DNA of 64,000 nucleotides from Candidatus Bathyarchaeia archaeon (GTDB taxonomy: Archaea > Thermoproteota > CALKCG01 > B24). The position numbers were made by a program, and so were the translations under genes. Position 1 is the stretch's first letter. Every line of letters starts with the position of its first letter. The notes below the pieces were generated by a model that saw only the letters and a list, made by a program, of their open reading frames with translations, had not been told where the DNA came from and did not search any database. The DNA is taken from positions 640,001 to 704,000 of the forward strand of contig JAVZJD010000002.1 in assembly GCA_038870975.1 (NCBI GenBank), given 5' to 3'. This document shows positions 6,309-23,033 of the stretch, one piece after another.

Positions 6309-7266
6309 ACAATACCTTCACTAAGTACTCTAAAGTCTTCCATAGAGCCTCTTTGGAGTCCAACTTAGGACTCCAGCCAGTTGCTCCCCTCAGCCTACCT
6401 ATGTCTAAGAGCATGAGCTTTACGTCTCCAAGCCACCCTCTACCGTCGTTCGTAGCGGGCTTGTAAACGTACTCTACGCTCTCTAAGCCCACGGCTTTAA
6501 CCGTCATATCTGCTATCTCCTTTACACTCACCCAGTCTTCAGAGCCCACGTTGAAAACCTCCTCTAAGCAGTCGCTTCCAAGCATATATTCTAGCGCCTT
6601 TAAAGTAGCATCTACTGCGTCTTCAACGTATATGTAGCTCTTCCTCTGGGAGCCGTCGCCGAGTATTTCAAGCATCCTAGGGTTTAATTTGAGCTTCCCA
6701 ATGAAGTCTACTAAAACGCCGTGCTTAGACCTAGGTCCGACCACGTTTGCATACCTCAATATAAGGCTTTTCAAACCGTAAAGCCTAGAGTACGTAGCTA
6801 TAAGCGCTTCACAAGCCAGTTTAACGGCTCCGTAGACTGATATGGGCTTTAGAGGTGTATAGTCTTCAGGCGTGGGTATCTGTTTAGCATCACCGTAGAC
6901 CGTGCTCGTAGATGCGAACACTAAGAGCGGGACTTTAAAACCCCTACAGGCTTCAAGCACGTTAAACGTCGCCTGAAGATTCTCCTCGAAGTGGACCTTA
7001 GGCTCCGTAACGCTGACCCTGACCTCTGGATTAGCGGCATAGTGGAAGACAACGTCTACGTCTTTAAACTCTTCAACCCACCCTTCGGGATTTTTAAGGT
7101 CACCCTTTACAAACCTGAATGCGGAGTTATAAAGCCAAGGTTTAAAGTTCTCAACGCATCCAGAGCTTAAATTATCTACGACTGTAACCTTACATCCTTC
7201 AGCCATAAGCCTATCCACGAGGTGGCTACCTATGAACCCTGCCCCGCCCGTAACCAGAGCCTTCAC
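6301..7266 (-). CDS. NAD-dependent nucleotide-sugar epimerase/dehydratase (GalE-like)
   Basis: VTGGAGFIGSHL, STSTVYG, YGAVK (YxxxK), LRYANVVGP. Confidence 0.92.
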   Translation of the reverse strand: MKALVTGGAGFIGSHLVDRLMAEGCKVTVVDNLSSGCVENFKPWLYNSAFRFVKGDLKNPEGWVEEFKDVDVVFHYAANPEVRVSVTEPKVHFEENLQATFNVLEACRGFKVPLLVFASTSTVYGDAKQIPTPEDYTPLKPISVYGAVKLACEALIATYSRLYGLKSLILRYANVVGPRSKHGVLVDFIGKLKLNPRMLEILGDGSQRKSYIYVEDAVDATLKALEYMLGSDCLEEVFNVGSEDWVSVKEIADMTVKAVGLESVEYVYKPATNDGRGWLGDVKLMLLDIGRLRGATGWSPKLDSKEALWKTLEYLVKVLFA

Positions 7267-12387: not shown

Positions 12388-13024
12388 TCCTATAGCTCAT
12401 ATTTGAAACCCTCCGTGGGATCCCTCATTTAGTCTAAGTTACTTCGGGATCTGGGATTGCCCATAGGCTACCCCCACTCTAATATAGATAGATGTAACCA
12501 CTTGCTTATAACGATATTGAACATTAGATTTATAAAAAAGACCCCATCCCTCAGTTAAATGTTACAGGATTCAGTAATTTTCCCTCACAACTACTGGTTA
12601 AATTAAACTAAAAACAGTAGAATAGAAGTTGGAAATTAACATAAAAGAGTAAAATAGAGAAGATTTAATGAAGTATTTTTCAAAGATTTTACAACATACC
12701 ATACACTTACCCACGTATCTTCTCAGCCTTAAAGTTAAAAAGGGGCTACTTCCAAACATTGGCAGGATTTAAACCCGATTGCAACCACGGCTAAAAGATA
12801 TCGTGTTATATTTCGAATAACATATATCATAATCCTTTCGCCTACCCCTTTTTAGAAGTATTCTATTAATTTTCAGATTTAGCGTACGAACTTAGGCTAG
12901 CTTAATTCTAGTTTATTTAATTTGATGAACTTAAGAATTTAAAAGGGGCTGAGGCTTCCATTGTTTTTACGTGGTTTCTGTTGAAACCATAATCGTTGAG
13001 TACTTTTCTCTAGTATTTTTCGAA

Positions 13025-14212
13025 TTACTTTGAAAGCTCTTTAAGCTTCTTAGCCAGTAGTGTTTTGAACTCTGGATCTTTCATTAGCATATCCATTATA
13101 TTGTCGGTCATACGTCTAATTTCTTCAAGCTCTAAGGCTACTCTAACGTCTAAGGCAAGCCCACATTTGATGCAGAATCTGGCGTCAAACTGGTTTGGCG
13201 TCTGACACCTAGGGCATAGTTTAGGCTTTAGCTTAGGCTCCGCCTCCTCGCACTTCTTAAGACCGTATATGCCTAGGACCGCATCATCTAAGTCCCTACC
13301 GGATAAATGGACGTATATGCTCGGCATTTCAGACCCTTGCTTCCATCCGAAGATTTGGTTCATCTGAGCCTCCGTGAGCTTACTGGCTAGAAAAGTAGCC
13401 CTGCTATGGCGTAGCTTGTGGGGGTGAATCTTCTTCCTAAGCCCAGCTCTCTCAGCGGCTACTTTAAGTACTTTAGCTAACGCTGGGTAGCTCATGGCTT
13501 TGCATCGGTTCACAGTTCCCATATTGACCCATAACGGTGCGTCTGACTTATTCTTCAGAGGGTGATTTTGAATCCAGTACATTAGATACGGTGTAGCTGC
13601 TACCACTATTACACGTCTAGCACCAGTCTTACCCTTAAGCGTTAGAGCCGCATAGCCTTCTTCAAACTTAACGTCTCTTATAAGCATAGAGCCCAGTTCA
13701 CCTATTCTAGCACCACTCTCGTAGAGTGTCATTATGAAAGCCTTATCCCTAGGGTTATCACACGCTTCGACGAGCTTCATAACCTCCTCCTCAGTCAAAA
13801 GATCCTCAGGAAGCAATTCATCCCTAGCCTTAAGCGTAGTCTTTATCCACTTAACCTCAGGTGGATACTCCTGATTGCCGCCTTTAAACCACTTGTAGAA
13901 CCTCTTTAAAGCAACCTTGTAGTCGTGCTTAGTCCAGGGGGAGTAATCGCTACGCTCTATGCGGTATACCAGACCCTTTATATCCTCCGCAGTAGCTTCT
14001 TCAAAGGGCTTACCCAACATATCGGATATACGCCTCAATATATCCAAGTACTTTGAAACTCTAATGGGCGTGATGCCTTCAGACAGCAGTTGCCTTTCAA
14101 ACTCAACTAGAAGCCTCTTATCACGCTTATCCATAGGGTTGTGAAGCCTAGATTCAGCCATCCTAAGCCTACCATCAGCATCGTGGATGTCTATCCTACG
14201 CTTCAAAACCAT
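13025..14212 (-). CDS. Tyrosine recombinase/integrase with C-terminal Zn ribbon (SNJ2-like architecture), intact
   Basis: YESGARIGEL (R), KGKTG (K), HKLRHSRAT (HxxR), FGW (W), SIYVH (Y); CPRC..CIKC; starts 46 bp downstream of the tRNA-Thr 3' end. Confidence 0.93.
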   Translation of the reverse strand: MVLKRRIDIHDADGRLRMAESRLHNPMDKRDKRLLVEFERQLLSEGITPIRVSKYLDILRRISDMLGKPFEEATAEDIKGLVYRIERSDYSPWTKHDYKVALKRFYKWFKGGNQEYPPEVKWIKTTLKARDELLPEDLLTEEEVMKLVEACDNPRDKAFIMTLYESGARIGELGSMLIRDVKFEEGYAALTLKGKTGARRVIVVAATPYLMYWIQNHPLKNKSDAPLWVNMGTVNRCKAMSYPALAKVLKVAAERAGLRKKIHPHKLRHSRATFLASKLTEAQMNQIFGWKQGSEMPSIYVHLSGRDLDDAVLGIYGLKKCEEAEPKLKPKLCPRCQTPNQFDARFCIKCGLALDVRVALELEEIRRMTDNIMDMLMKDPEFKTLLAKKLKELSK

Positions 14213-14247: not shown

Positions 14248-14523
14248 TTATGGTATAAAGCCCCCGGCGGGATTTGAACCCGCGACCGTCAGCTTACAAG
14301 GCTGACGCCCTAACCGGTCTGGGCTACGGGGGCCTATATTTCTTTGAAACAGGCTTAAATTTAGAGTTTTCTCCTTTCTATCAGTACTAGTACCGGTACT
14401 AGTACTGATAATTAGTTCTTCAATAAGAGAGGGGATTGAAAGATTCCTATTTGACGCCTCCTCTTTTAAACGGTTATAGAGCGCCGTAGATATAGTTATA
14501 CATGTAAAACCTGGCTTAGGCAT
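14248..14523 (-). CDS. N-terminal fragment of split SSV1-type integrase, int(N)
   Basis: MPKPGFTCITISTALYNRLKEEASNRNLSIPSLIEELI (RHH-like) reads through the att repeat and tRNA; joins 21882-22711 in frame if the repeats recombine. Confidence 0.85.
   Translation of the reverse strand: MPKPGFTCITISTALYNRLKEEASNRNLSIPSLIEELIISTSTGTSTDRKEKTLNLSLFQRNIGPRSPDRLGRQPCKLTVAGSNPAGGFIP
14259..14333 (-). tRNA. tRNA-Thr(UGU), no encoded CCA
   Basis: Minus strand GCCCCCGTAGCCCAGACCGGTTAGGGCGTCAGCCTTGTAAGCTGACGGTCGCGGGTTCAAATCCCGCCGGGGGCT; stem TCAGC/GCTGA, loop CT-TGT-AA. Confidence 0.93.
14292..14384. repeat. 93-bp direct repeat, att site copy 1 (tRNA 5' half + 51 bp upstream)
   Basis: Identical to 22712-22804. 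Confidence 0.97.
14350..14372 (-). promoter_or_regulatory. Putative BRE/TATA promoter of tRNA-Thr (duplicated at 22770-22792)
   Basis: GAAAACTCTAAATTTAAG about 21-38 nt upstream of the mature tRNA 5' end. Confidence 0.55.
14379..14410. repeat. Perfect 32-bp palindrome at the inner edge of the att site
   Basis: TATCAGTACTAGTACCGGTACTAGTACTGATA equals its own reverse complement. Confidence 0.95.
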
Positions 14524-14587
14524 ATGTTTGAGAAAATCCTGAAAAAAAATAAAGGAATTTTTATCGAAAAAATGCAAGGACGGGCTG

Positions 14588-14932
14588 TTAGAATTTTCCA
14601 GACTGCGTGAGTTTTAACAGCTTCTGGTAAACCTCTCTGCCGTCTCTTTCAACAACTGTTTTTAAGAAGCTCTTTCTACTCTTAGGATTTAATGAAGTGA
14701 AGAGGTTTTTAAGCATTAAAGCCTTAATCTCCTCATTCTTCCAGTCTAACACTTTCCTGCTTAGAAGAACCGTATTCTCCAGCTTCATCATTATAAGTTC
14801 AAAACCCCCTTCTGTAGGAACATCATCAAATAGTTCGACTTCAACATTATTTAGATTTAAACCGTATTTTTCATTGAGATATGAAATCCAACCGTTAAAC
14901 CAAACCTCGAGAATTGGAAGCCTCTCGCTCAT
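14588..14932 (-). CDS. Hypothetical protein (element)
   Basis: 114-aa ORF, GGAGGTG RBS upstream. Confidence 0.6.
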   Translation of the reverse strand: MSERLPILEVWFNGWISYLNEKYGLNLNNVEVELFDDVPTEGGFELIMMKLENTVLLSRKVLDWKNEEIKALMLKNLFTSLNPKSRKSFLKTVVERDGREVYQKLLKLTQSGKF

Positions 14933-14938
14933 ACCTTT

Positions 14939-15274
14939 TCACCTCCATTCTTCGACGCATAATAGCTCTTTTATTTTCTTCTTTTCTTCAGCTATTTTTA
15001 AATGCTTGCAGCTTCCCCTGTATCGGAAGCCTGGGCATGTGCATGTTTTAGCCTTCAGATCGACATAATAATAAATGCCGGGTTTACTGAAGCTTTCAAC
15101 CGTCAGGATCCCGCTTTCATTCTTCACCTGGTCCACCTCCGCTTGTTGCTGAAGATCGGCTTGTTTAGGCTGTGGCGGCTTACCCGCCGGCTCGCGAATA
15201 TCCCACGGTTCAAACCTGCACCACCTGAAGAAAGTGTTGCAGAAGGTTTTATTTAAGCCTTTAGATGAAGACAA
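14939..15274 (-). CDS. SWIM zinc-finger protein
   Basis: YYVDL..KTCTCPGFRYRGSCKHL (CxC...CxH); start uncertain. Confidence 0.75.
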   Translation of the reverse strand: MSSSKGLNKTFCNTFFRWCRFEPWDIREPAGKPPQPKQADLQQQAEVDQVKNESGILTVESFSKPGIYYYVDLKAKTCTCPGFRYRGSCKHLKIAEEKKKIKELLCVEEWR

Positions 15275-15372
15275 AATTAATGGAAAAATATGGATTTTTA
15301 AAAAGACCCCTTTCTTCCCTTCTGCTTCAGATGAAGCAAAAGATTTAAAAGCTTGAAGCTCATCAATTCATT

Positions 15373-15540
15373 ATGATGAAGCCAGCCAGCCGATTGAAGA
15401 GAACCTCAATCTTTATAGTTGATGAAAAGCTGTGGGCTTGGGCGCACTATAGAGCGCGAGCTCTAGGCTTCAAAAGCGTAGCCGACTACATTTTTGAATT
15501 AATCCGACGAGATAAGGTCGAGGCGGAGAAAAAAGCCTAA
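15373..15540 (+). CDS. Ribbon-helix-helix regulator (55 aa, not in ORF track)
   Basis: MMKPASRLKRTSIFIVDEKLWAWAHYRARALGFKSVADYIFELIRRDKVEAEKKA; the only plus-strand gene called in the element. Confidence 0.7.
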   Translation: MMKPASRLKRTSIFIVDEKLWAWAHYRARALGFKSVADYIFELIRRDKVEAEKKA

Positions 15541-15683
15541 CTCTTCAACTCCATAAAACTCCATTAAAATTCATAATCTTCGAATTTTATGGTCGTTTTT
15601 ATGGTTGTTTTTTATGGTTGTTTAGACCCCCCCCTCCTAGTCGAGGAAATTAACGGATAGAAGCGGGGGAAAGCCTAAACCCT

Positions 15684-16124
15684 TCAAAGTTTCCATCCGA
15701 GTTTCAACAGTCCGCGCTCTAAGGCGTCTTTTATTGATTCTGGTAGGACTCTACGGATTAACTCGTTTATTTTTAAGCCAGACTTTGTCCCTGGATGTCT
15801 GACATACCTTGCGAATATTACCTCGCCGCCGATTTCAAACCTCAGGGCTCTGGCTCTACGCGGACGAATAATGTGTGGTCTCGAGCCGAACAGAAGCCAG
15901 CCTGGAGCCTCGAAGAAGACTCGAGACAGTCTATCGGATTCGTGGACAATCCTCACCTTCCCCTCCAGCCATCTGGTTTTTTCAAGCTCAGCAGCAATAT
16001 TATTGGCGACACTATGCGTAATTTCGGACCTTATAGATTTAATAACATCTTCTCTCAAGAATTTCACAAGATCAGGTAGATCTCTCAAATTTTTACCCTT
16101 CACACGAACCTCTACCTTAAACAT
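15684..16124 (-). CDS. HK97-gp10-like virion morphogenesis (tail completion/neck) protein
   Basis: FGSRPHIIRPRRARALRFEIGGEVIFARYVRHPGTK resembles the G(T/S)xPHxIxP..A.ALRF....F...VxHPGT signature of phage gp10-like proteins. Confidence 0.6.
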   Translation of the reverse strand: MFKVEVRVKGKNLRDLPDLVKFLREDVIKSIRSEITHSVANNIAAELEKTRWLEGKVRIVHESDRLSRVFFEAPGWLLFGSRPHIIRPRRARALRFEIGGEVIFARYVRHPGTKSGLKINELIRRVLPESIKDALERGLLKLGWKL

Positions 16125-16145
16125 GATATTTCTTCTTCACCTCCA

Positions 16146-16886
16146 TTAATTATAAATTGAAGCGGTTTTCTTTAAAGATTCTTTTTCATTTAACCGTAAT
16201 AAGTCGCCGCCTAGATTTCTTAGAAGCGTGGTTATCGGATTTAACTGTTTAATCGGTATTTTAAAGGCCTCACCGTATTTCAGCTTTTCAACCGTCATCT
16301 TCTCAACATCCTCTCTCTTAAGATAGCCCGATATCCAGGCATGTGTAAGCTTCTCGTTAAACCGTAGGAAGACATAAATATCTGCGTGATGCTGTTTAAA
16401 CCGTTCAACATTAACATAATAACATTCAGGGCTATTCTTTGATGATGAAGCCTTAACATCAATTTTAAGACTTCCAACTATAAAGTCGGCTTCACTTGAT
16501 TTTCCCTTCTTCAACTCGAAATCTTGAATTATTGGATGGTTCCAGACATGTTGGATTTTAAACTGATTAAGCGTCATATCGAAGACCTTTTCAGCAAGCC
16601 AGCCTAAGAGAAGATTTTCTTCTTCATTTTCTCTCCAATGTTCAGTTGATGGATATTTTCTAAATCTGGGTAGCAACTCCTTTAGAATGGCTTTAGCCTC
16701 TTTAAGTGTGGATTCTTCTATTTTATACTCAAGCTCACGCTTAATCATTTTCACAGCTATAAGCGGGTATCCTTTTAAACTGGGGTCATCAAAGTTGCCA
16801 CCAATTTCAAAATCCGTATATGTTAAAGGTTTTCTATCTTTTTTAAGGAAAGTCCGCAAACTTTGTTTTTCATCCCTTACAGCCAT
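16146..16886 (-). CDS. PD-(D/E)XK restriction-endonuclease-like nuclease
   Basis: GWLAEKVF (E helix) ... ADFIV ... IDVKAS, ADIYVF. Confidence 0.65.
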   Translation of the reverse strand: MAVRDEKQSLRTFLKKDRKPLTYTDFEIGGNFDDPSLKGYPLIAVKMIKRELEYKIEESTLKEAKAILKELLPRFRKYPSTEHWRENEEENLLLGWLAEKVFDMTLNQFKIQHVWNHPIIQDFELKKGKSSEADFIVGSLKIDVKASSSKNSPECYYVNVERFKQHHADIYVFLRFNEKLTHAWISGYLKREDVEKMTVEKLKYGEAFKIPIKQLNPITTLLRNLGGDLLRLNEKESLKKTASIYN

Positions 16887-19360
16887 TTTAATCGCCCACC
16901 TGGAAGCTTTACGATGAAAGCTTTTCTAAGCAGGCTGTTGAAAACTTCCAACGCCTTCTCTTCTCCCAAAATCTTTTTTAATTCATTAATGAAAAGAGGT
17001 TCCTCAGCGTAATCCTCCCCCGGAATCTTACAATTTTCAAATATACTCCTAATGTTTGAAATAATTGAATCAGTAGGGGGGTTTGGAGTTACTTTAGTTA
17101 CTGAAGTTACTTTAGTTAATAAGCCCCCCCGATTTAAAAAATCAATAGGCACATAAGCATATGAATAATTCCCCGTCCCTTTTTTAACGACGAAACCGAG
17201 GCTCGTTCTAATGTAGTTTGATATTCTTCGCGTCAAGCCTTTGACTTCTCCTTCGGTCATATCACCGTTTTTAAGACGCTCGGCGATATCCTTAATTCTT
17301 ATTGGAATTAAGTCCCTTTTTGATTTTTGTTGAGCCTCACTAACTTGAGTAACTAAAGTAACTTGAGTAACTTTTTCACTAGGGGCGAGGACTTTCACCC
17401 CTCCGCTTTCAGCGGCTATTTCCCTCATTGCCTTTGGCACCTCTTCCTCCAACCATGCATCTGGGTCTAGGCTTCTGACTTCCTCGGTTTTTAACTCGGC
17501 CAGTGATAATAGCGACTTTTTAAGCTCGGGGCTTTCAAAGACAAGCGTAAGCGGTAGAATCACTTGTCCTATTCGGGGCTCAACTTTTCCGTTGAAAGTC
17601 TCGCTAAACAATCCCTCTTTTTCCAGCTGCTTCGAAACCTCAACAATCCTCCTGTAGTTTCTGAAACGCCATAGAAGTAGCTTGTTTCTCAACCTCAACG
17701 CCTCCGCCTTGAATTGTTCACCTCTATAGAGCGGTGCCCTTCCGCTGCCCTTTCTCGATATGAAACTTATGCATCTTGATTCTAGGGCGATGTCCTTAAA
17801 CTCGCGGCGCGTGCAGAGAAGCTTAGGACCAAAGACATGGAAAGCCTCTACAAGCCTCGCGTTGTTCTCGTTGCAGCAACGATACCAGCCCTGCGATTTA
17901 GAAAACCCTATGTTAAGGATTTTAATGATCGCGGAGTATAAACTCGAGTCTGTGAAATCCGCCTCATCAATCAGTGCCGTTCCCCGCCATAAATCGAAGG
18001 TCCGCCTTATACTGGCTTCGGAGTCGCAACCCGCTAGAATCACCGGTCTATAGCATATGGAGCCGACCGTTTCAAGCCATGCTGTTTTACCACTACCCCA
18101 CCGTCCCTTAGCCCTCCGGTATGGAATCTGCGGCAGTGTATCGTATATCCATGTGAGAAACACATACACCGCGTCTAAAATTCTTTCAAAGCTATCAGGT
18201 TGCTCGTGCCATTTATTTAGAAAATCCATGACTTCGTTGAACAGCTTTTCGTCACTTTCATATTCCTCTGCCGTACTTGGAAGCATCACCTGCCCCGTTT
18301 CAACATCTTTATTCATTATTGGTTTATAGATGACATCTCCATCCTGAACCTCCTCAACTTCGCTTATGAATCCCCCTCCTAGATCGTAAACAGCAAATAA
18401 TGCTTTTCCATTTCGAAAAACCTCCTCAAGAATTTTCCCGTCGCTTAAAACAGCCGCGGGCGTGTAAACCACCTGTTTCCTCCTCACTTCGAATTTTCCG
18501 CTGAGTTTGCAAAGCTTCTCAAGGCTCTCATTGCAAATTCCTAATTCTTTCATTCCGCTACAACCATACTCATAACCATGTTTTCTAACGGATTCAAGAC
18601 ATGCTTTTACCTCTTTATCCTCTAGCGGAGGTTTATTCCGAGTATTCCATTCCTCCAACCTATTTAAAACCTCAAGTGGAGGAAGACTTCTAAAGTAGAG
18701 CCAATATGAGGCAAGTCTAACGGCAGCTTCATTACGCATACCCTCCTCAACACCATCCGCCAGTCTTCTAATGCAGGGGGGATCTTCAGAGTTTCCATGT
18801 TTAAACACACCCATTTCTCCGGCTCTAGTCCATACGACGGATTCCAGGTCGTCTACAACAGGTATTGACTGTAGTTTCCATGGGTTGTTGATAAACTCAT
18901 ATTTTACACCGGATGGATGAATGGATGGAGGGGCAACGACATAACTCCCCTCCGATTTAACATCCAGGTGGATCCCTGGTATTTTGAACGACTTCACCGG
19001 CTTGGATGTTCTGAAGTAAACATGTACACCCCTGGCGGTTTTCACAACAATGGTTGAATTCTTTATCTTTTCAAAGTTGAAAAACTTTTCGAAATATTGA
19101 AAGTCGTCGAAGTCGATTACAACCAGGTTTCCAGATATAGAGCCACAGACGACGCCTAAATTTATTCTCCCAGAGCCTAGCCATCTTTCAACTTCTTCAT
19201 CTGTTGCACACCTCTTCTGAAATTCGAGCCATTGAATTATCGGCTCTTTCGATCCATATCGTAGCGGTATAATACTGAATCCTAATCTTCTGTAAAGCTC
19301 TACATACTTTCTTAGTTCTTCTTTTCCTATATTCTCTAAATTTTCAACATTCAACGACAT
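16877..19360 (-). CDS. Replication protein: bifunctional primase-polymerase + PriCT + P-loop NTPase/helicase-like + wHTH
   Basis: GFSIIPL..SKEP, NLGVVCG..LVVIDFDD, KTARGVHVYF, YVVAPPSIHPSG; EGMRNEAAVRLA..WN.RNKPPL (PriCT); GRWGSGKT, LIDEAD. Confidence 0.9.
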   Translation of the reverse strand: MSLNVENLENIGKEELRKYVELYRRLGFSIIPLRYGSKEPIIQWLEFQKRCATDEEVERWLGSGRINLGVVCGSISGNLVVIDFDDFQYFEKFFNFEKIKNSTIVVKTARGVHVYFRTSKPVKSFKIPGIHLDVKSEGSYVVAPPSIHPSGVKYEFINNPWKLQSIPVVDDLESVVWTRAGEMGVFKHGNSEDPPCIRRLADGVEEGMRNEAAVRLASYWLYFRSLPPLEVLNRLEEWNTRNKPPLEDKEVKACLESVRKHGYEYGCSGMKELGICNESLEKLCKLSGKFEVRRKQVVYTPAAVLSDGKILEEVFRNGKALFAVYDLGGGFISEVEEVQDGDVIYKPIMNKDVETGQVMLPSTAEEYESDEKLFNEVMDFLNKWHEQPDSFERILDAVYVFLTWIYDTLPQIPYRRAKGRWGSGKTAWLETVGSICYRPVILAGCDSEASIRRTFDLWRGTALIDEADFTDSSLYSAIIKILNIGFSKSQGWYRCCNENNARLVEAFHVFGPKLLCTRREFKDIALESRCISFISRKGSGRAPLYRGEQFKAEALRLRNKLLLWRFRNYRRIVEVSKQLEKEGLFSETFNGKVEPRIGQVILPLTLVFESPELKKSLLSLAELKTEEVRSLDPDAWLEEEVPKAMREIAAESGGVKVLAPSEKVTQVTLVTQVSEAQQKSKRDLIPIRIKDIAERLKNGDMTEGEVKGLTRRISNYIRTSLGFVVKKGTGNYSYAYVPIDFLNRGGLLTKVTSVTKVTPNPPTDSIISNIRSIFENCKIPGEDYAEEPLFINELKKILGEEKALEVFNSLLRKAFIVKLPGGRLKWL
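17087..17372. repeat. Two inverted arrays of 9-bp-period iteron-like repeats (putative origin) inside rep
   Basis: AGTTACT at 17087, 17096, 17105 (+AGTTAAT 17114); AGTAACT at 17348, 17357, 17366 (+ACTAACT 17339). Confidence 0.7.
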
Positions 19361-19363
19361 TTT

Positions 19364-19951
19364 TCACCACTGTCCAATGAATGCTATCCTATTCTTTTTC
19401 TCATTCTTTCTTTCATTCTTTCTCTTCAACGGATTTCTAAAAACTTCCGTCAATTCTTCAAAGGTGGTAGGCTCTAAATCCGCATCCTTCAAGATTTCAT
19501 CTACTGGATAGTTTTCCAACATCTTCAGAAGGTTTTTCAGTTTTTCAACATTTTTATCAGTCACCCGTATTTTCCGAATTCTAAGCCACTTTTCAAGACT
19601 GGACTTATTCAACGGGCATTGGAAGTTGAAGCACCACTCCGCATCCTCACAGGAATCTTTAGTTACGACGATATCCCTGATTATCAAAACATGCATCAAA
19701 TTCCCTACCCTGTAGGGTTTTTTAGAATATCCGCAGATCCCTAAGTTTTGATAGCTTTTTCTACCGAAGCTTATTCCTCTAAAGTAAAGATTGGTCCATA
19801 CAACTGGGTAGAAAGCACCCCTAGATTCCATGAGAACACCTCCCGAAGAAGGGTCTGAAGAGGTCGAATTATGTTGAAGAAACTCCGAGGGCTTCGACCT
19901 TACACCCTTCTTCATTATATTATAATGTTTTAGCGGGTGGAAATTTTCCAT
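19364..19951 (-). CDS. Hypothetical Cys-containing protein (element)
   Basis: C..AEWCFNFQCP cluster; true start may be internal (MESRG, after GGAGGTG). Confidence 0.55.
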   Translation of the reverse strand: MENFHPLKHYNIMKKGVRSKPSEFLQHNSTSSDPSSGGVLMESRGAFYPVVWTNLYFRGISFGRKSYQNLGICGYSKKPYRVGNLMHVLIIRDIVVTKDSCEDAEWCFNFQCPLNKSSLEKWLRIRKIRVTDKNVEKLKNLLKMLENYPVDEILKDADLEPTTFEELTEVFRNPLKRKNERKNEKKNRIAFIGQW

Positions 19952-19987
19952 AAAAAATTTACACTTCCATACTTTTATCCATTAATT

Positions 19988-21094
19988 TTAATCTCGGAGA
20001 AACTCGTACTCGGCTTCATCTCTCCGCCGGTCTCTCAAGCCTAAAGCCTTCCTATACTCGTCGGGAAAAGGTGCTTTATAGTCTTTTAGCCAGTCTAACT
20101 CGCGGAGGCATTTCCATATCTGCATCCTATTTAAAGGCATACCTAGCGATATTTCATCTAGAAAGCTTTTCAAGTAGAATTTGAATGGAAGACCTTTAAA
20201 CTTCCTTTTTTGAAGCCATAAAAGCTCTCGGAAGAAGGCAGAAACCACTATGCTTTTCATGTTGTCTCCATTAAGAACGGTGAATTTTCGTAGGATTCTT
20301 GAGGTCCAAAAGAGCGCTTCCAAATAAATACCGGTTCTATTGACACCCCAGTAGGAAATCCTTAGGACTTCTGATGGACGGATGAATATGGATTCAAAGG
20401 GAAAAATTCCATATCCGAGGAGCCTCGGCAAAACCCTGTAGAAGCGCTTCAGCTCATATTCTCCGGCGATTATCGGTGTATATTCGGGTCGTCTCCATAA
20501 GGCTGTGTACAATGCGCCTGTTAAGATTAGTTCCGTCCGCTCGAGCTCGGGAAGCTTTAAACCAAGCTCTCTTCCAACAATGTATTTCGAATAGAAGTAG
20601 CGTCCAAGCGAGGAAAACTCTCCAATCTTAACCGGGTTTTTGAAAACCTTCTGAAGTATTTTAGCCATTTCTCTCAACCTTCTCTCCTCCTCGGGTAGAA
20701 CTACAATGGTTGAGCCGATTTCGAAGCCCATCAAGTCAAGCGTTTTCCTAGGCGTATACTTCCGCTTCAATTCAGCCCTTTCAACATCCATCTTAGCTTG
20801 TCTCTTTCTCCCCTCTGTGAAATAGCTGAGAAAGCTGTCATCCAACCCCGCCTGCTCAGGCGAATAGATTTCACGGTATTGTTTCTCCAGACATTGGAAG
20901 CACATTAACACGGGTTCTGTGAAAACACCGTCAACAAACTTATGGGCAATATGTAAGTCTGCTATCACAGGCTTAGCGCAGACCCCGCAGCGTCCCCCCT
21001 TCGGCTCATACGGAAGCCCAGAATTCCCCTCCTCTTTAAGCATTTCAGCTAAAACTTCAGTTAAACTTAAATATTCTCTTCTAGTTATATTCAA
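19988..21094 (-). CDS. Hypothetical protein with N-terminal Zn-finger/HNH-like motif
   Basis: CGVC...LHIAHK...LMCFQC; GAGGTG RBS upstream. Confidence 0.6.
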   Translation of the reverse strand: MNITRREYLSLTEVLAEMLKEEGNSGLPYEPKGGRCGVCAKPVIADLHIAHKFVDGVFTEPVLMCFQCLEKQYREIYSPEQAGLDDSFLSYFTEGRKRQAKMDVERAELKRKYTPRKTLDLMGFEIGSTIVVLPEEERRLREMAKILQKVFKNPVKIGEFSSLGRYFYSKYIVGRELGLKLPELERTELILTGALYTALWRRPEYTPIIAGEYELKRFYRVLPRLLGYGIFPFESIFIRPSEVLRISYWGVNRTGIYLEALFWTSRILRKFTVLNGDNMKSIVVSAFFRELLWLQKRKFKGLPFKFYLKSFLDEISLGMPLNRMQIWKCLRELDWLKDYKAPFPDEYRKALGLRDRRRDEAEYEFLRD

Positions 21095-21118
21095 ATGGGT
21101 CCACCTCGGTTATCATGA

Positions 21119-21148
21119 AGCCGTGGGTAGTGGGGGCTACCTACGGCT
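21119..21148. other. GC-rich 12-bp stem-loop between the copG-like gene and the next gene
   Basis: AGCCGTGGGTAG-tggggg-CTACCTACGGCT (one G:T pair). Confidence 0.6.
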
Positions 21149-21156
21149 GACCGTTC

Positions 21157-21324
21157 CTACTGTTGTTCTCCCTCTCCAATATTGAATGCGTTAAGCTCTT
21201 TGAGATAATTTGTAAGCGATAGCACTATGAACTGGCTTCTACTCATTTTCATCTTTTTTCTTACTCTTTCCACTATTTCATCAACACCTTTTGGTATAGT
21301 AAAAGCCCTTATTCTATAATCCAT
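21157..21324 (-). CDS. CopG/RHH regulator (55 aa, not in ORF track) heading the replication operon
   Basis: MDYRIRAFTIPKGVDEIVERVRKKMKMSRSQFIVLSLTNYLKEL...; GGAGGAGGTG RBS upstream. Confidence 0.8.
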   Translation of the reverse strand: MDYRIRAFTIPKGVDEIVERVRKKMKMSRSQFIVLSLTNYLKELNAFNIGEGEQQ

Positions 21325-21881
21325 TTTTCTCTTACACCTCCTCCTACTTTATAGTAAAATAAAAGCACTATTATAAACTTTGTTACAACGACACTTTTAG
21401 AAAAATTCACGATTTTACCGTAAAATTACGATAAGGCTCCATAGTTTTTCCATGAAGTTTACGACAAGCCCATTCTCGGCTTCTATAAAAAATACAGTAT
21501 TTGTACATTCTCAAGTTCCATCAAAATACAGTAATTTTCTAAGGTAACGAAACCTCCGTAAAACACCCTGGCTGAAGACAATTTTAACATTTTCATGTTA
21601 AAATCGAGGCTTCCCCCTTTCTGAAAAGCCTTAGCTGTTTACATTTGTATACAAAAATATAGCGGCTTATGGATTTCGCTTTAGTTTTTTATACCAGAAA
21701 TTTGTATGGGTTTTGTATGGACTCTTTTTATGGATTTTTAGACCCCCCTCCCCTCTTTAACCATTTTTTCGCCTTTTCTTTTGTAAAAAATTGCTCTTTT
21801 CAAACCTACCCCCTCCCCCGTATAGTTTTACCATTATAAATTACCCGTAGTAATATTTACGGCTGAAAAAATATGGGAAAA

Positions 21882-22682
21882 TCACAATAAGAGCTTCTCC
21901 TCCCAAGGCTTTACGGCTTTTAAAACTTTAGATCCAAGCTCTAATAAGTTGGGACGATAGTAGTATCGTGTAAATATTCCTGGCGGAATTCTCCCTTGGA
22001 GAAGATCAACAGCCTCAGTTGAAATATAGCCTCGCATGTATGTAGCCCAGGCTCTTCTGACTTCTTGAAGCTTCATCTTCAGGTTTTCACGGTGGAGCTT
22101 CTTCCTTAAAATATTATAGCTTGTTTCCTCAGTAAACTGTTCCAACGCTTCACGGACTGTTGGACTTATGAAGCTTAGATAGGCGTTCTTCTTAACCCTT
22201 AGAAACTCTTTAAACTTGAAGTGTTCCAACGCCCCGAATTCACGGTTATAGTATCCGTTTAAACCGTGCTGTTGGACCCTTCTAATCACCAAAAAGACCT
22301 CTTCAGCCCTTAAACCTGTGAGGAAGGCTAGGGTGGTGGGAAAGTAGAACCTCCATCCTAGGCTCTTCACGGCTTCAGCCCATTGGAAGAGATCATCTAA
22401 CTTAGAGCCGCCATTCAAGATATTTCTCAGGCTTTCAAAAGAGTTAGAGCTGTTCCATTTTAGACCATATTTCTGTTTAAACTCGTCGAAAAGCTCAGGA
22501 GTTCCAATATACCTTGTGAAGGCTCTAATAGCCTTGAGAAGATTAGCTTTTTGAAAACCGCTCAGATTGTGAATTCGAGGGTCATATTCAAACAACGCAT
22601 AAAAATATTTTTTTGCATAAACATAATTGTTTTTGGCATAAGTTTTCGAAAACCTACTGTTAAGCCAGCTTTTGAAATCCAT
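21882..22682 (-). CDS. C-terminal catalytic fragment of split SSV1-type integrase, int(C)
   Basis: TGLRAEE, RVKK, QEVRRAWATYM, VDLLQGR, FTRYY; frame stays open through att copy 2. Confidence 0.9.
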   Translation of the reverse strand: MDFKSWLNSRFSKTYAKNNYVYAKKYFYALFEYDPRIHNLSGFQKANLLKAIRAFTRYIGTPELFDEFKQKYGLKWNSSNSFESLRNILNGGSKLDDLFQWAEAVKSLGWRFYFPTTLAFLTGLRAEEVFLVIRRVQQHGLNGYYNREFGALEHFKFKEFLRVKKNAYLSFISPTVREALEQFTEETSYNILRKKLHRENLKMKLQEVRRAWATYMRGYISTEAVDLLQGRIPPGIFTRYYYRPNLLELGSKVLKAVKPWEEKLLL

Positions 22683-22711
22683 CCAGTTGAGCGATAAATC
22701 CTCGTAATGAT

Positions 22712-22804
22712 GCTTACAAGGCTGACGCCCTAACCGGTCTGGGCTACGGGGGCCTATATTTCTTTGAAACAGGCTTAAATTTAGAGTTTTCTCCTTTCTA
22801 TCAG
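22712..22804. repeat. 93-bp direct repeat, att site copy 2 (includes truncated tRNA-Thr 5' half, 22712-22753)
   Basis: Identical to 14292-14384; tRNA similarity stops just after the anticodon loop. Confidence 0.97.
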
Positions 22805-22906
22805 GGTATACCTGGGGTTAACCCTATTTGAAGAGCCGCCGTTTTGGACTTCAAAAGAGGCTACTTCCGTTTTAAGGCTTATGAATCTATAGTCTGGTTT
22901 CGGTAG
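22805..22906 (-). pseudogene. Relic of a second int(N) fragment outside the element
   Basis: Translates LPKPDYRFISLKTEVAS..., similar to MPKPGFTCITISTALY of int(N), in the same position relative to att; shortened and out of frame. Confidence 0.5.
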
Positions 22907-23033
22907 ACTTTTAGAGTTAACCTTAACAAAATTACCCTTAACTAGACCGTGTTCCATTTATCAATATAATTCTAGAGTTTAACAACATTTAAGTTATATT
23001 TTTTAGCTGTTTCGGCTTGATCCTCATCCATTG

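Follow-up and report, generated by a model that had tools for sequence, protein, structure and literature searches.

The 64 kb stretch of DNA analysed here (the window, whose coordinates are used for all parts of the element) belongs to an archaeal genome assembled from a hot-spring metagenome (G000; 1.85 Mb in two contigs, ∼42% GC). It very probably contains a recently integrated, cryptic plasmid-like element of 8,420 bp, inserted in the single tRNA-Thr(UGU) gene by a distant SSV1-type integrase. The attachment site of the element (attP) lies inside its own integrase open reading frame (ORF), in a segment predicted to code for a disordered linker, and integration has cut the gene into an N-terminal part, int(N), and a C-terminal part, int(C). 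Strand exchange would take place at the anticodon stem-loop, with the identity between element and chromosome running 5'-ward through the tRNA and a further 51 nt of promoter-like DNA.

The tRNA-Thr repeats, the split integrase and the empty site

The element is bounded by direct repeats at 14292–14384 and 22712–22804, which are identical at 93 of 93 nt with a spacing of 8,420 bp and whose identity breaks at the very next base on both sides. ARAGORN places a tRNA-Thr(TGT) gene on the minus strand at 14258–14334; folding by hand according to its stems sets the gene at 14259–14333. The window has no other tRNA, and the genome no second Thr-UGU gene. The repeat comprises tRNA positions 1–42, ending 2 nt beyond the anticodon loop, and 51 nt of upstream DNA. 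A TATA-like box (AAATTTAA) is present in the upstream part at about −29 to −22, which is the expected position of an archaeal TATA box. Judged from this arrangement, the 51 nt are promoter-like (resembling a B recognition element, BRE, and TATA box) and would probably act as the promoter of the tRNA gene.

The left, attL-like copy (14292–14384, minus strand) supplies these 51 nt and the 5' 42 nt of the rebuilt tRNA-Thr(UGU) gene (14259–14333, minus strand), the 3' part of which is chromosomal. The working tRNA after integration would be this combination of the element-adjacent copy, with its upstream DNA and 5' part, and the 3' part from the chromosome. The right, attR-like copy (22712–22804, minus strand) also consists of promoter-like DNA and the tRNA 5' part and is directed into int(C), which would be left orphaned.

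Joining the minus-strand segments 14523→14292 and 22711→21882 gives 1,062 nt, that is, 353 codons plus a stop, with no internal stop codon. In the integrated state int(N) (14248–14523, minus strand, ATG at 14523; phrog_11622) runs into the tRNA and stops at 14248. It codes for a ribbon–helix–helix (RHH)-like N-terminal domain (residues about 9–42) followed by the att-coded linker, with att coding for integrase residues 48–78 (31 residues). The int(C) part (21882–22711, minus strand), which contains an in-frame ATG at 22682, codes for the core-binding and catalytic domains, with Arg165, Lys205, Arg249, Arg271 and Tyr281 as catalytic residues (numbered according to P0001, the protein of att plus int(C)).

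A comparison of P0001 with the PHROGs produced a match to the integrase family phrog_5127 (2e-10). Its 88 homologues come chiefly from Bathyarchaeia and Nitrososphaeria and the majority of them carry the Pfam domain PF16795 (archaeal phage integrase); the five catalytic residues are invariant in an alignment of 16 sequences. The family profile matches the SSV1 integrase (E = 4e-6) across the DxxQGR block, which reads DLLQGR here. An AlphaFold model of att plus int(C) (predicted local distance difference test score, pLDDT, of 82) matches archaeal XerA (4A8E) over its whole length, and the modelled catalytic domain matches that of SSV1 Int (3VCF) with a template-modelling (TM) score of 0.70; λ Int was also matched. 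The integrase is a distant SSV1-type self-splitting (type I, 'suicidal') tyrosine recombinase with attP within its own ORF. That it may catalyze integration of attP at attB, the chromosomal site, and excision is indicated indirectly by natural populations in which the site is either empty or occupied. Searches of the phage and plasmid collections with att plus int(C) (tblastn) produced no match, the presence of pTN3 in these collections being unconfirmed, and a scan of metagenome contigs with P0001 peptide patterns found no close relatives. A tblastn search of the genome itself with all of the element proteins found no second copy of any.

The att-coded part of the protein is predicted to be disordered and to link the recombinase core to a small RHH-like DNA-binding domain. 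In the model of att plus int(C), residues 1–34, which correspond to the att-coded part, have pLDDT values below 50, while the model of int(N) plus att shows two helices (13–25 and 30–42; RHH-like) followed by values below 50 over residues 39–91. An att-coded peptide is found at the same place in homologues and often reads G-F-E-P, the antisense of a T-arm. Since the att falls in such a linker, the same 93 nt could be codons, attachment site, promoter-like DNA and tRNA at little cost.

A perfect palindrome of 32 bp (14379–14410) spans the outer edge of att, with 6 nt in att and 26 nt in the coding DNA of int(N), where it codes for ISTSTGTSTD. It is the longest palindrome in the window, the runner-up being 18 bp, and is a candidate for a protein-binding site of the arm type, which the RHH-like domain might recognize.

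These results agree with most of what an earlier note on this DNA had claimed. Its perfect 93 bp repeats of 42 nt of tRNA and 51 nt of upstream DNA have correct coordinates and 100% identity. The single 1,062-nt (353-residue) integrase ORF that it derived for a recombined circle of 8,420 bp is borne out, as the frame closes exactly and the quoted junction peptide is correct, and the joined ORF, recombinase fold and catalytic residues support an integrase of the SSV type that is divided by the attP it contains. The further claim that one stretch of DNA is simultaneously integrase codons, att site, tRNA promoter and tRNA stands for the codons (residues 48–78), the att and the tRNA 5' part; the promoter role was read from sequence alone.

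The insertion is polymorphic in nature. In G002, a genome of the same genus (as are G003 and G005), no element intervenes, and a span of 2.8 kb takes in the gene of the left flank, the tRNA and the gene of the right flank. Logan contigs from three hot-spring metagenomes belonging to three different studies (X2, X3 and X5) join position 14291 straight to 22712, with all 93 letters fitting either side, and are 98.8% identical to the window over the right flank (7 of 589 positions differ). The empty attB was thus found both in a related genome and in metagenomes, and its occurrence in near-identical strains from three studies supports the earlier proposal that the insertion is recent. Pieces 90–95% identical to the element are present in the X2, X3 and X5 runs, which represent other springs. 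Two independent metagenome contigs (L006 and L007) have an int(C) with 82% identity behind an att and a 26-nt chromosomal flank that match those of the window, indicating that a second variant of the element uses the tRNA-Thr site.

Origin of the upstream DNA and geometry of the att site

The 26-nt BRE/TATA core of the upstream stretch (GAAAGGAGAAAACTCTAAATTTAAGC) has three copies in the genome, namely the two att copies and one upstream of tRNA-Leu(CAG), where it is matched at 26 of 26 positions; over the att upstream stretch as a whole the match is 39 of 48. The tRNA-Leu(CAG) module lies inside a 277-nt insertion directly upstream of the gene (G000:C2:216603–216892; L003 and L116). This insertion is absent from G002 and G005, both of which keep the flank to within 15 nt of the tRNA, and it also carries the GGGGTC/CCATAAAA motif, which is common to the element. 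These features suggest that a related element may have integrated and decayed at tRNA-Leu(CAG).

The motif, GGGGTCTAA followed by 3–4 spaced CCATAAAA units, has 12 copies in the genome, two of them in the element and ten outside. In the element, copy 1 (GGGGTCTAA and three CCATAAAA units; 15596–15638, minus strand) is situated upstream of the row of genes leading to int(N), and copy 2, of the same GGGGTCTAA + CCATAAAA type (21712–21754, minus strand), upstream of a CopG-like gene. Five of the ten outside copies are found within 1 kb of a tRNA gene, and most of these face its 3' end. Integrase-promoter ends that belong to other integrated elements, or to the scars of such elements, would be expected in positions of this kind. 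Sites outside the element include C1:324325, C1:565364, C1:936704, C1:1058752 and C2:151062 of G000.

At G000:C1:494288–494690 the motif is followed by an element-like int promoter (∼85% identical, z = 41) and a 72-residue RHH ORF (gene at G000:C1:494475), which begins MPKPGY as in int(N) and has no tRNA-like sequence after it. This gene is a stand-alone relative or a remnant of int(N). The chromosomal flank to the right of the element (22805–22957, minus strand) appears to be a fossil int(N)-like sequence, translating to PKPDY...RVNPRY. Over 21 nt this flank matches the RVNPRVY codons of the gene at C1:494 kb in 20 positions (z = 7 against shuffles), and at the peptide level the two share both ends, a score reached by 4 of 1000 shuffles. 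Similarity between this flank and the current int(N) was not significant at the DNA level.

These observations bear on where the 51 nt came from. The best-surviving alternative to a captured host promoter, to which we give somewhat less than an even chance, is that an earlier related element decayed at tRNA-Thr and that its int(N) stub, promoter module and tRNA 5' half make up the present attB, the promoter thus being element-derived. The long identity would then be family sequence meeting family sequence. The fossil int(N)-like flank and its match at C1:494 kb, beside an element-like int promoter, argue for such a history, as do the perfect module at tRNA-Leu(CAG) in a lineage-specific insertion beside the GGGGTC/CCATAAAA motif and the proximity of half of the outside motif copies to tRNA genes. 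However, the similarity of the fossil is short and does not extend to the current int(N) at the DNA level, and a diverged module is present upstream of tRNA-Thr in G002 and G004, so that an old host promoter copied by the element is equally possible; the direction of transfer between host and element is therefore not settled. We tentatively propose, as an idea with the odds rather against it, a promoter-replacement ratchet in which 5'-targeting split-integrase elements carry a portable tRNA promoter and leave it behind on decay, the fossils forming the next, extended attB.

The geometry of the att was surveyed with a tRNA profile over 280 nt around the int(C) start in 80 related loci. A sense tRNA 5' half (model positions 1–2 to 37–44) abuts int(C) in 15 of the 80, and an antisense tRNA 3' half (positions about 31–75, with starts at about 30–34) in ∼40. 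On a tree of the catalytic parts the 5'/3' state changes at least seven times, five of the changes being forced by well-supported branches. The window and L006 form a 5' pair in a well-supported clade, the other classified members of which are of the 3' type. In L005, from the same clade (43% identical), the target is the 3' half of tRNA-Thr(UGU), in antiparallel orientation, and the att starts at the very TCAGC stem and 7-nt loop that form the end of the att in the window.

The end of the 5'-type sites at 37–44, the start of the 3'-type sites at ∼30–34 and the stem and loop shared with L005 point to the anticodon stem-loop, where the identity block ends on its int(C)-proximal side, as the place of strand exchange. 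For SSV1, exchange has been shown at the same location (cited in PMC8371274). A switch of geometry may then correspond to a flip of the asymmetric loop relative to the symmetric stem.

A second att copy was found for four 5'-type relatives: 41 bp reaching 2 nt upstream of the tRNA (L026), 43 bp also reaching 2 nt (L070), 52 bp reaching 14 nt (L034) and 128 bp with 96% identity and 89 nt of upstream DNA (L028, with a joined integrase of 390 residues). All five mismatches in the L028 repeat fall in its distal upstream part. For L085 the length was unmeasurable, as the second match lies upstream and not downstream of int(C). A long, upstream-inclusive att is thus confined to a minority; having arisen on at least two occasions, it is unusual rather than unique. 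L028 belongs to a Bathyarchaeial element of 6.3 kb (G045:C62:274–314, 6674–6801 and 13017–13144), and the third, partial repeat copy 6 kb further upstream may reflect a tandem array.

The short sites of the relatives raise the possibility that the 51 nt are not needed for recombination. In that case the functional att would be only ∼40–45 bp (the tRNA 5' part and anticodon stem-loop) and the upstream identity passive, for example a product of gene conversion or homologous exchange. Such a site would agree with the 41, 43 and 52 bp of three relatives, with the 43 bp minimal site of pTN3 (PMC5495485) and with the distal position of the L028 mismatches. On the other hand, the identity in the window stops abruptly and exactly at −51 on both sides, the 32 bp palindrome sits on that boundary in the element and L028, a second and unrelated element, has 89 nt of upstream DNA in its repeat. 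We lean against the short site while regarding it as a genuine possibility.

One earlier expectation has to be revised on this basis. A promoter in the att is no necessary consequence of targeting the 5' half: three of the four relatives have sites of 41–52 bp, and pTN3 separates the tRNA from its promoter. The earlier note had also raised, as a limit on its novelty, the possibility that a 5'-half-plus-promoter att is the norm of this integrase clade. The 5' half itself is common in the family (15 of 80 loci), the closest clade is of the 3' type and a long upstream att was found in one of the four measured relatives.

Mobility, gene content and neighbouring loci

In X1, the probable source run of the genome, the depth of the element (19.6) equals that of its flanks (19–22), giving no sign of many free copies. 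The 93-nt att unitig in this run has a depth of 59 compared with ∼20 for the element and flanks, which corresponds to three copies rather than two; the surplus may stem from empty sites, from circles or from other strains. An exact search of Joint Genome Institute (JGI) metagenome contigs for the attP junction (the int(N) side, 93 bp and the int(C) side) found none. The Logan contigs cannot resolve a 93 bp repeat and are hence unable to show this junction. Low-depth contigs of the 90–95% variants in X2 and X3 contain joints in the region 14567–17844 at which 2.3–3.2 kb are skipped or the sequence returns by 2.9 kb. They are weak evidence of mosaic or rearranged relatives in other springs, the sides of the joints being short (23–38 nt).

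The element could be an immobile remnant, its integrase gene destroyed by integration and excision no longer taking place. The split gene, the equal depth in X1 and the missing attP junction are in keeping with this, whereas the perfect repeats, the intactness of all of the ORFs, the empty sites in near-identical strains and the 90–95% variants in other springs speak for an element that may still move, and we consider the immobile state unlikely. That the repeat is an assembly artefact can practically be dismissed: the assembly is metagenomic and X1 is possibly its own source, but independent empty-site contigs from three studies and attR-like junctions in two other data sets exist and the integrase frame closes exactly.

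Several points nevertheless weigh against a recently integrated, mobile element with a promoter-bearing att. The match of P0001 to PF16795 is weak, at 18.8 bits, below the curated cut-off of 27. The attP junction did not appear in the JGI contigs, and with the integrase gene split, excision needs a source of the enzyme. Three of the four measured 5'-type relatives, with only 2–14 nt upstream of the tRNA, have an att that lacks the upstream promoter stretch.

All of the element genes are on the minus strand, in the order int(C), CopG-like, 368, 195, Prim-Pol, 246, 146, SWIM, 114-residue ORF and int(N) (the numbers denoting lengths in residues). The CopG/RHH-like regulator (55 residues; 21157–21324, minus strand) is followed by the ORFs of 368 and 195 residues (19364–21094, minus strand), without a family match, and by a replication protein of 827 residues (16877–19360, minus strand) containing a Prim-Pol domain of the archaeo-eukaryotic primase (AEP) type and PriCT-1. 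Inverted AGTTACT arrays with a 9 bp period occur within the Prim-Pol gene at 17087–17118 and 17341–17372 and form a possible origin overlapping the coding sequence. The ORFs of 246 and 146 residues (15684–16886, minus strand) have no family match. A 111-residue SWIM zinc-finger ORF and the 114-residue ORF, which has no assigned function (together 14588–15274, minus strand), lie directly upstream of int(N) and probably share an operon with it.

The gene content of the element, an integrase, a Prim-Pol replication protein, two RHH-type regulators and small ORFs, reads as that of a cryptic integrative plasmid rather than a provirus. Searches of all element ORFs against Pfam and the PHROGs found no virion family (capsid, portal or terminase), and five ORFs were left without assignment. 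An HK97-gp10-like virion protein and a reading as a satellite were considered for these five ORFs with Pfam at E values of up to 1 and rejected, as the matches were sub-threshold noise only.

A complete integrase of 395 residues (PF00589, with a C-terminal zinc ribbon; 13025–14212, minus strand) starts 46 nt from the 3' end of tRNA-Thr and is syntenic in G002, G003 and G005 at 77–79% nucleotide identity. Either this integrase has become fixed or domesticated, or an old 3'-side element ends here. In G003, the DNA beside this conserved left-flank integrase (C32; L010) is ∼78% like the tRNA region, its 5' part not having been found by pattern search. An identical tRNA-Thr(UGU) gene is located on another contig of the same genome (G003:C31:9603–9678), and the arrangement may reflect a tRNA copy that an element left behind.

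Significance and comparison with known systems

The element and its relatives extend self-splitting, 5'-half integrases from plasmids of the Thermococcales to a large and mostly uncultured family in Bathyarchaeia, Nitrososphaeria and hot-spring archaea, in which the 5' and 3' geometries interconvert repeatedly about the symmetric anticodon stem. The natural empty and occupied sites offer a case for how an essential single-copy tRNA stays expressed once its promoter side is mobile DNA. If the fossil reading is true, host tRNA genes have had their promoters remade by mobile elements, and if the ratchet operates, tRNA-Thr(UGU) and, in this lineage, tRNA-Leu(CAG) run on element-derived promoters. 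This possible origin is the part that deserves to be followed up.

Among the pT26-2 family, integration is at tRNA 3' ends nearly throughout, with one 5' exception, AveSNP6_IE1 (Badel et al., 2020; PMC7253208). The integrase described here resembles those of pT26-2 in being suicidal, in its frequent switches of target tRNA and in an att that is translated as part of a variable segment lying between Int(N) and Int(C). It differs in that nearly all of the pT26-2 integrases use the 3' end with int antiparallel to the tRNA, and no sequence similarity to them was detected here. With the SSV1 integrase it shares the tyrosine recombinase character and the attP inside the ORF; unlike SSV1, which uses the 3' part of tRNA-Arg, it uses the 5' part of tRNA-Thr and has an RHH-like N-terminal domain.

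In a survey of Thaumarchaeota and Aigarchaeota, 5' targeting accounted for one of 39 tRNA integrations and the att sites were mostly shorter than 26 bp (Krupovic et al., 2019; PMC6563490). Of the elements described there, CalSub-E1 had recombined with tRNA-Ser in its 5'-distal part, a split integrase not being stated, and NitEve-E3 has a split SSV1-like integrase (PMC6563490). The present element is similar to both of these cryptic elements in its small size, its integrase and AEP-primase-type replication protein and the lack of virion genes. A promoter in the att is not discussed in that survey.

A close parallel is provided by the pTN3-like integrases of the Thermococcales (pTN3 and TKV4), for which 5'-half tRNA targeting has been published (PMC8371274; PMC5495485). 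This, together with the 15 of 80 family loci, removes the novelty that had been attached to 5'-half targeting as such; since both integrase splitting and use of the 5' half are in the literature, what is new is less than the earlier note held. As in pTN3, the attP lies in the integrase gene, which is split on integration, and the attB is a tRNA 5' half ending near the anticodon loop; int is co-oriented with the tRNA, so that int(N) comes to precede the rebuilt tRNA while int(C) follows the promoter that the tRNA originally had. In pTN3, 41 bp are shared with attB, the minimal site is 43 bp and integration detaches the tRNA from its original promoter (Cossu et al., 2017; PMC5495485), whereas the 93 bp of identity found here includes 51 nt with a TATA-like box. 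The integrases also differ in length (353 residues compared with ∼430 in IntpTN3, which has Tyr428 as its catalytic residue), as do the hosts, the present element residing in a hot-spring archaeon and having its integrase relatives in Bathyarchaeia and Nitrososphaeria. What is new here is the occurrence of the pTN3-like 5' geometry with a distant SSV1-type integrase, in another lineage and with an unusually long, promoter-like att.

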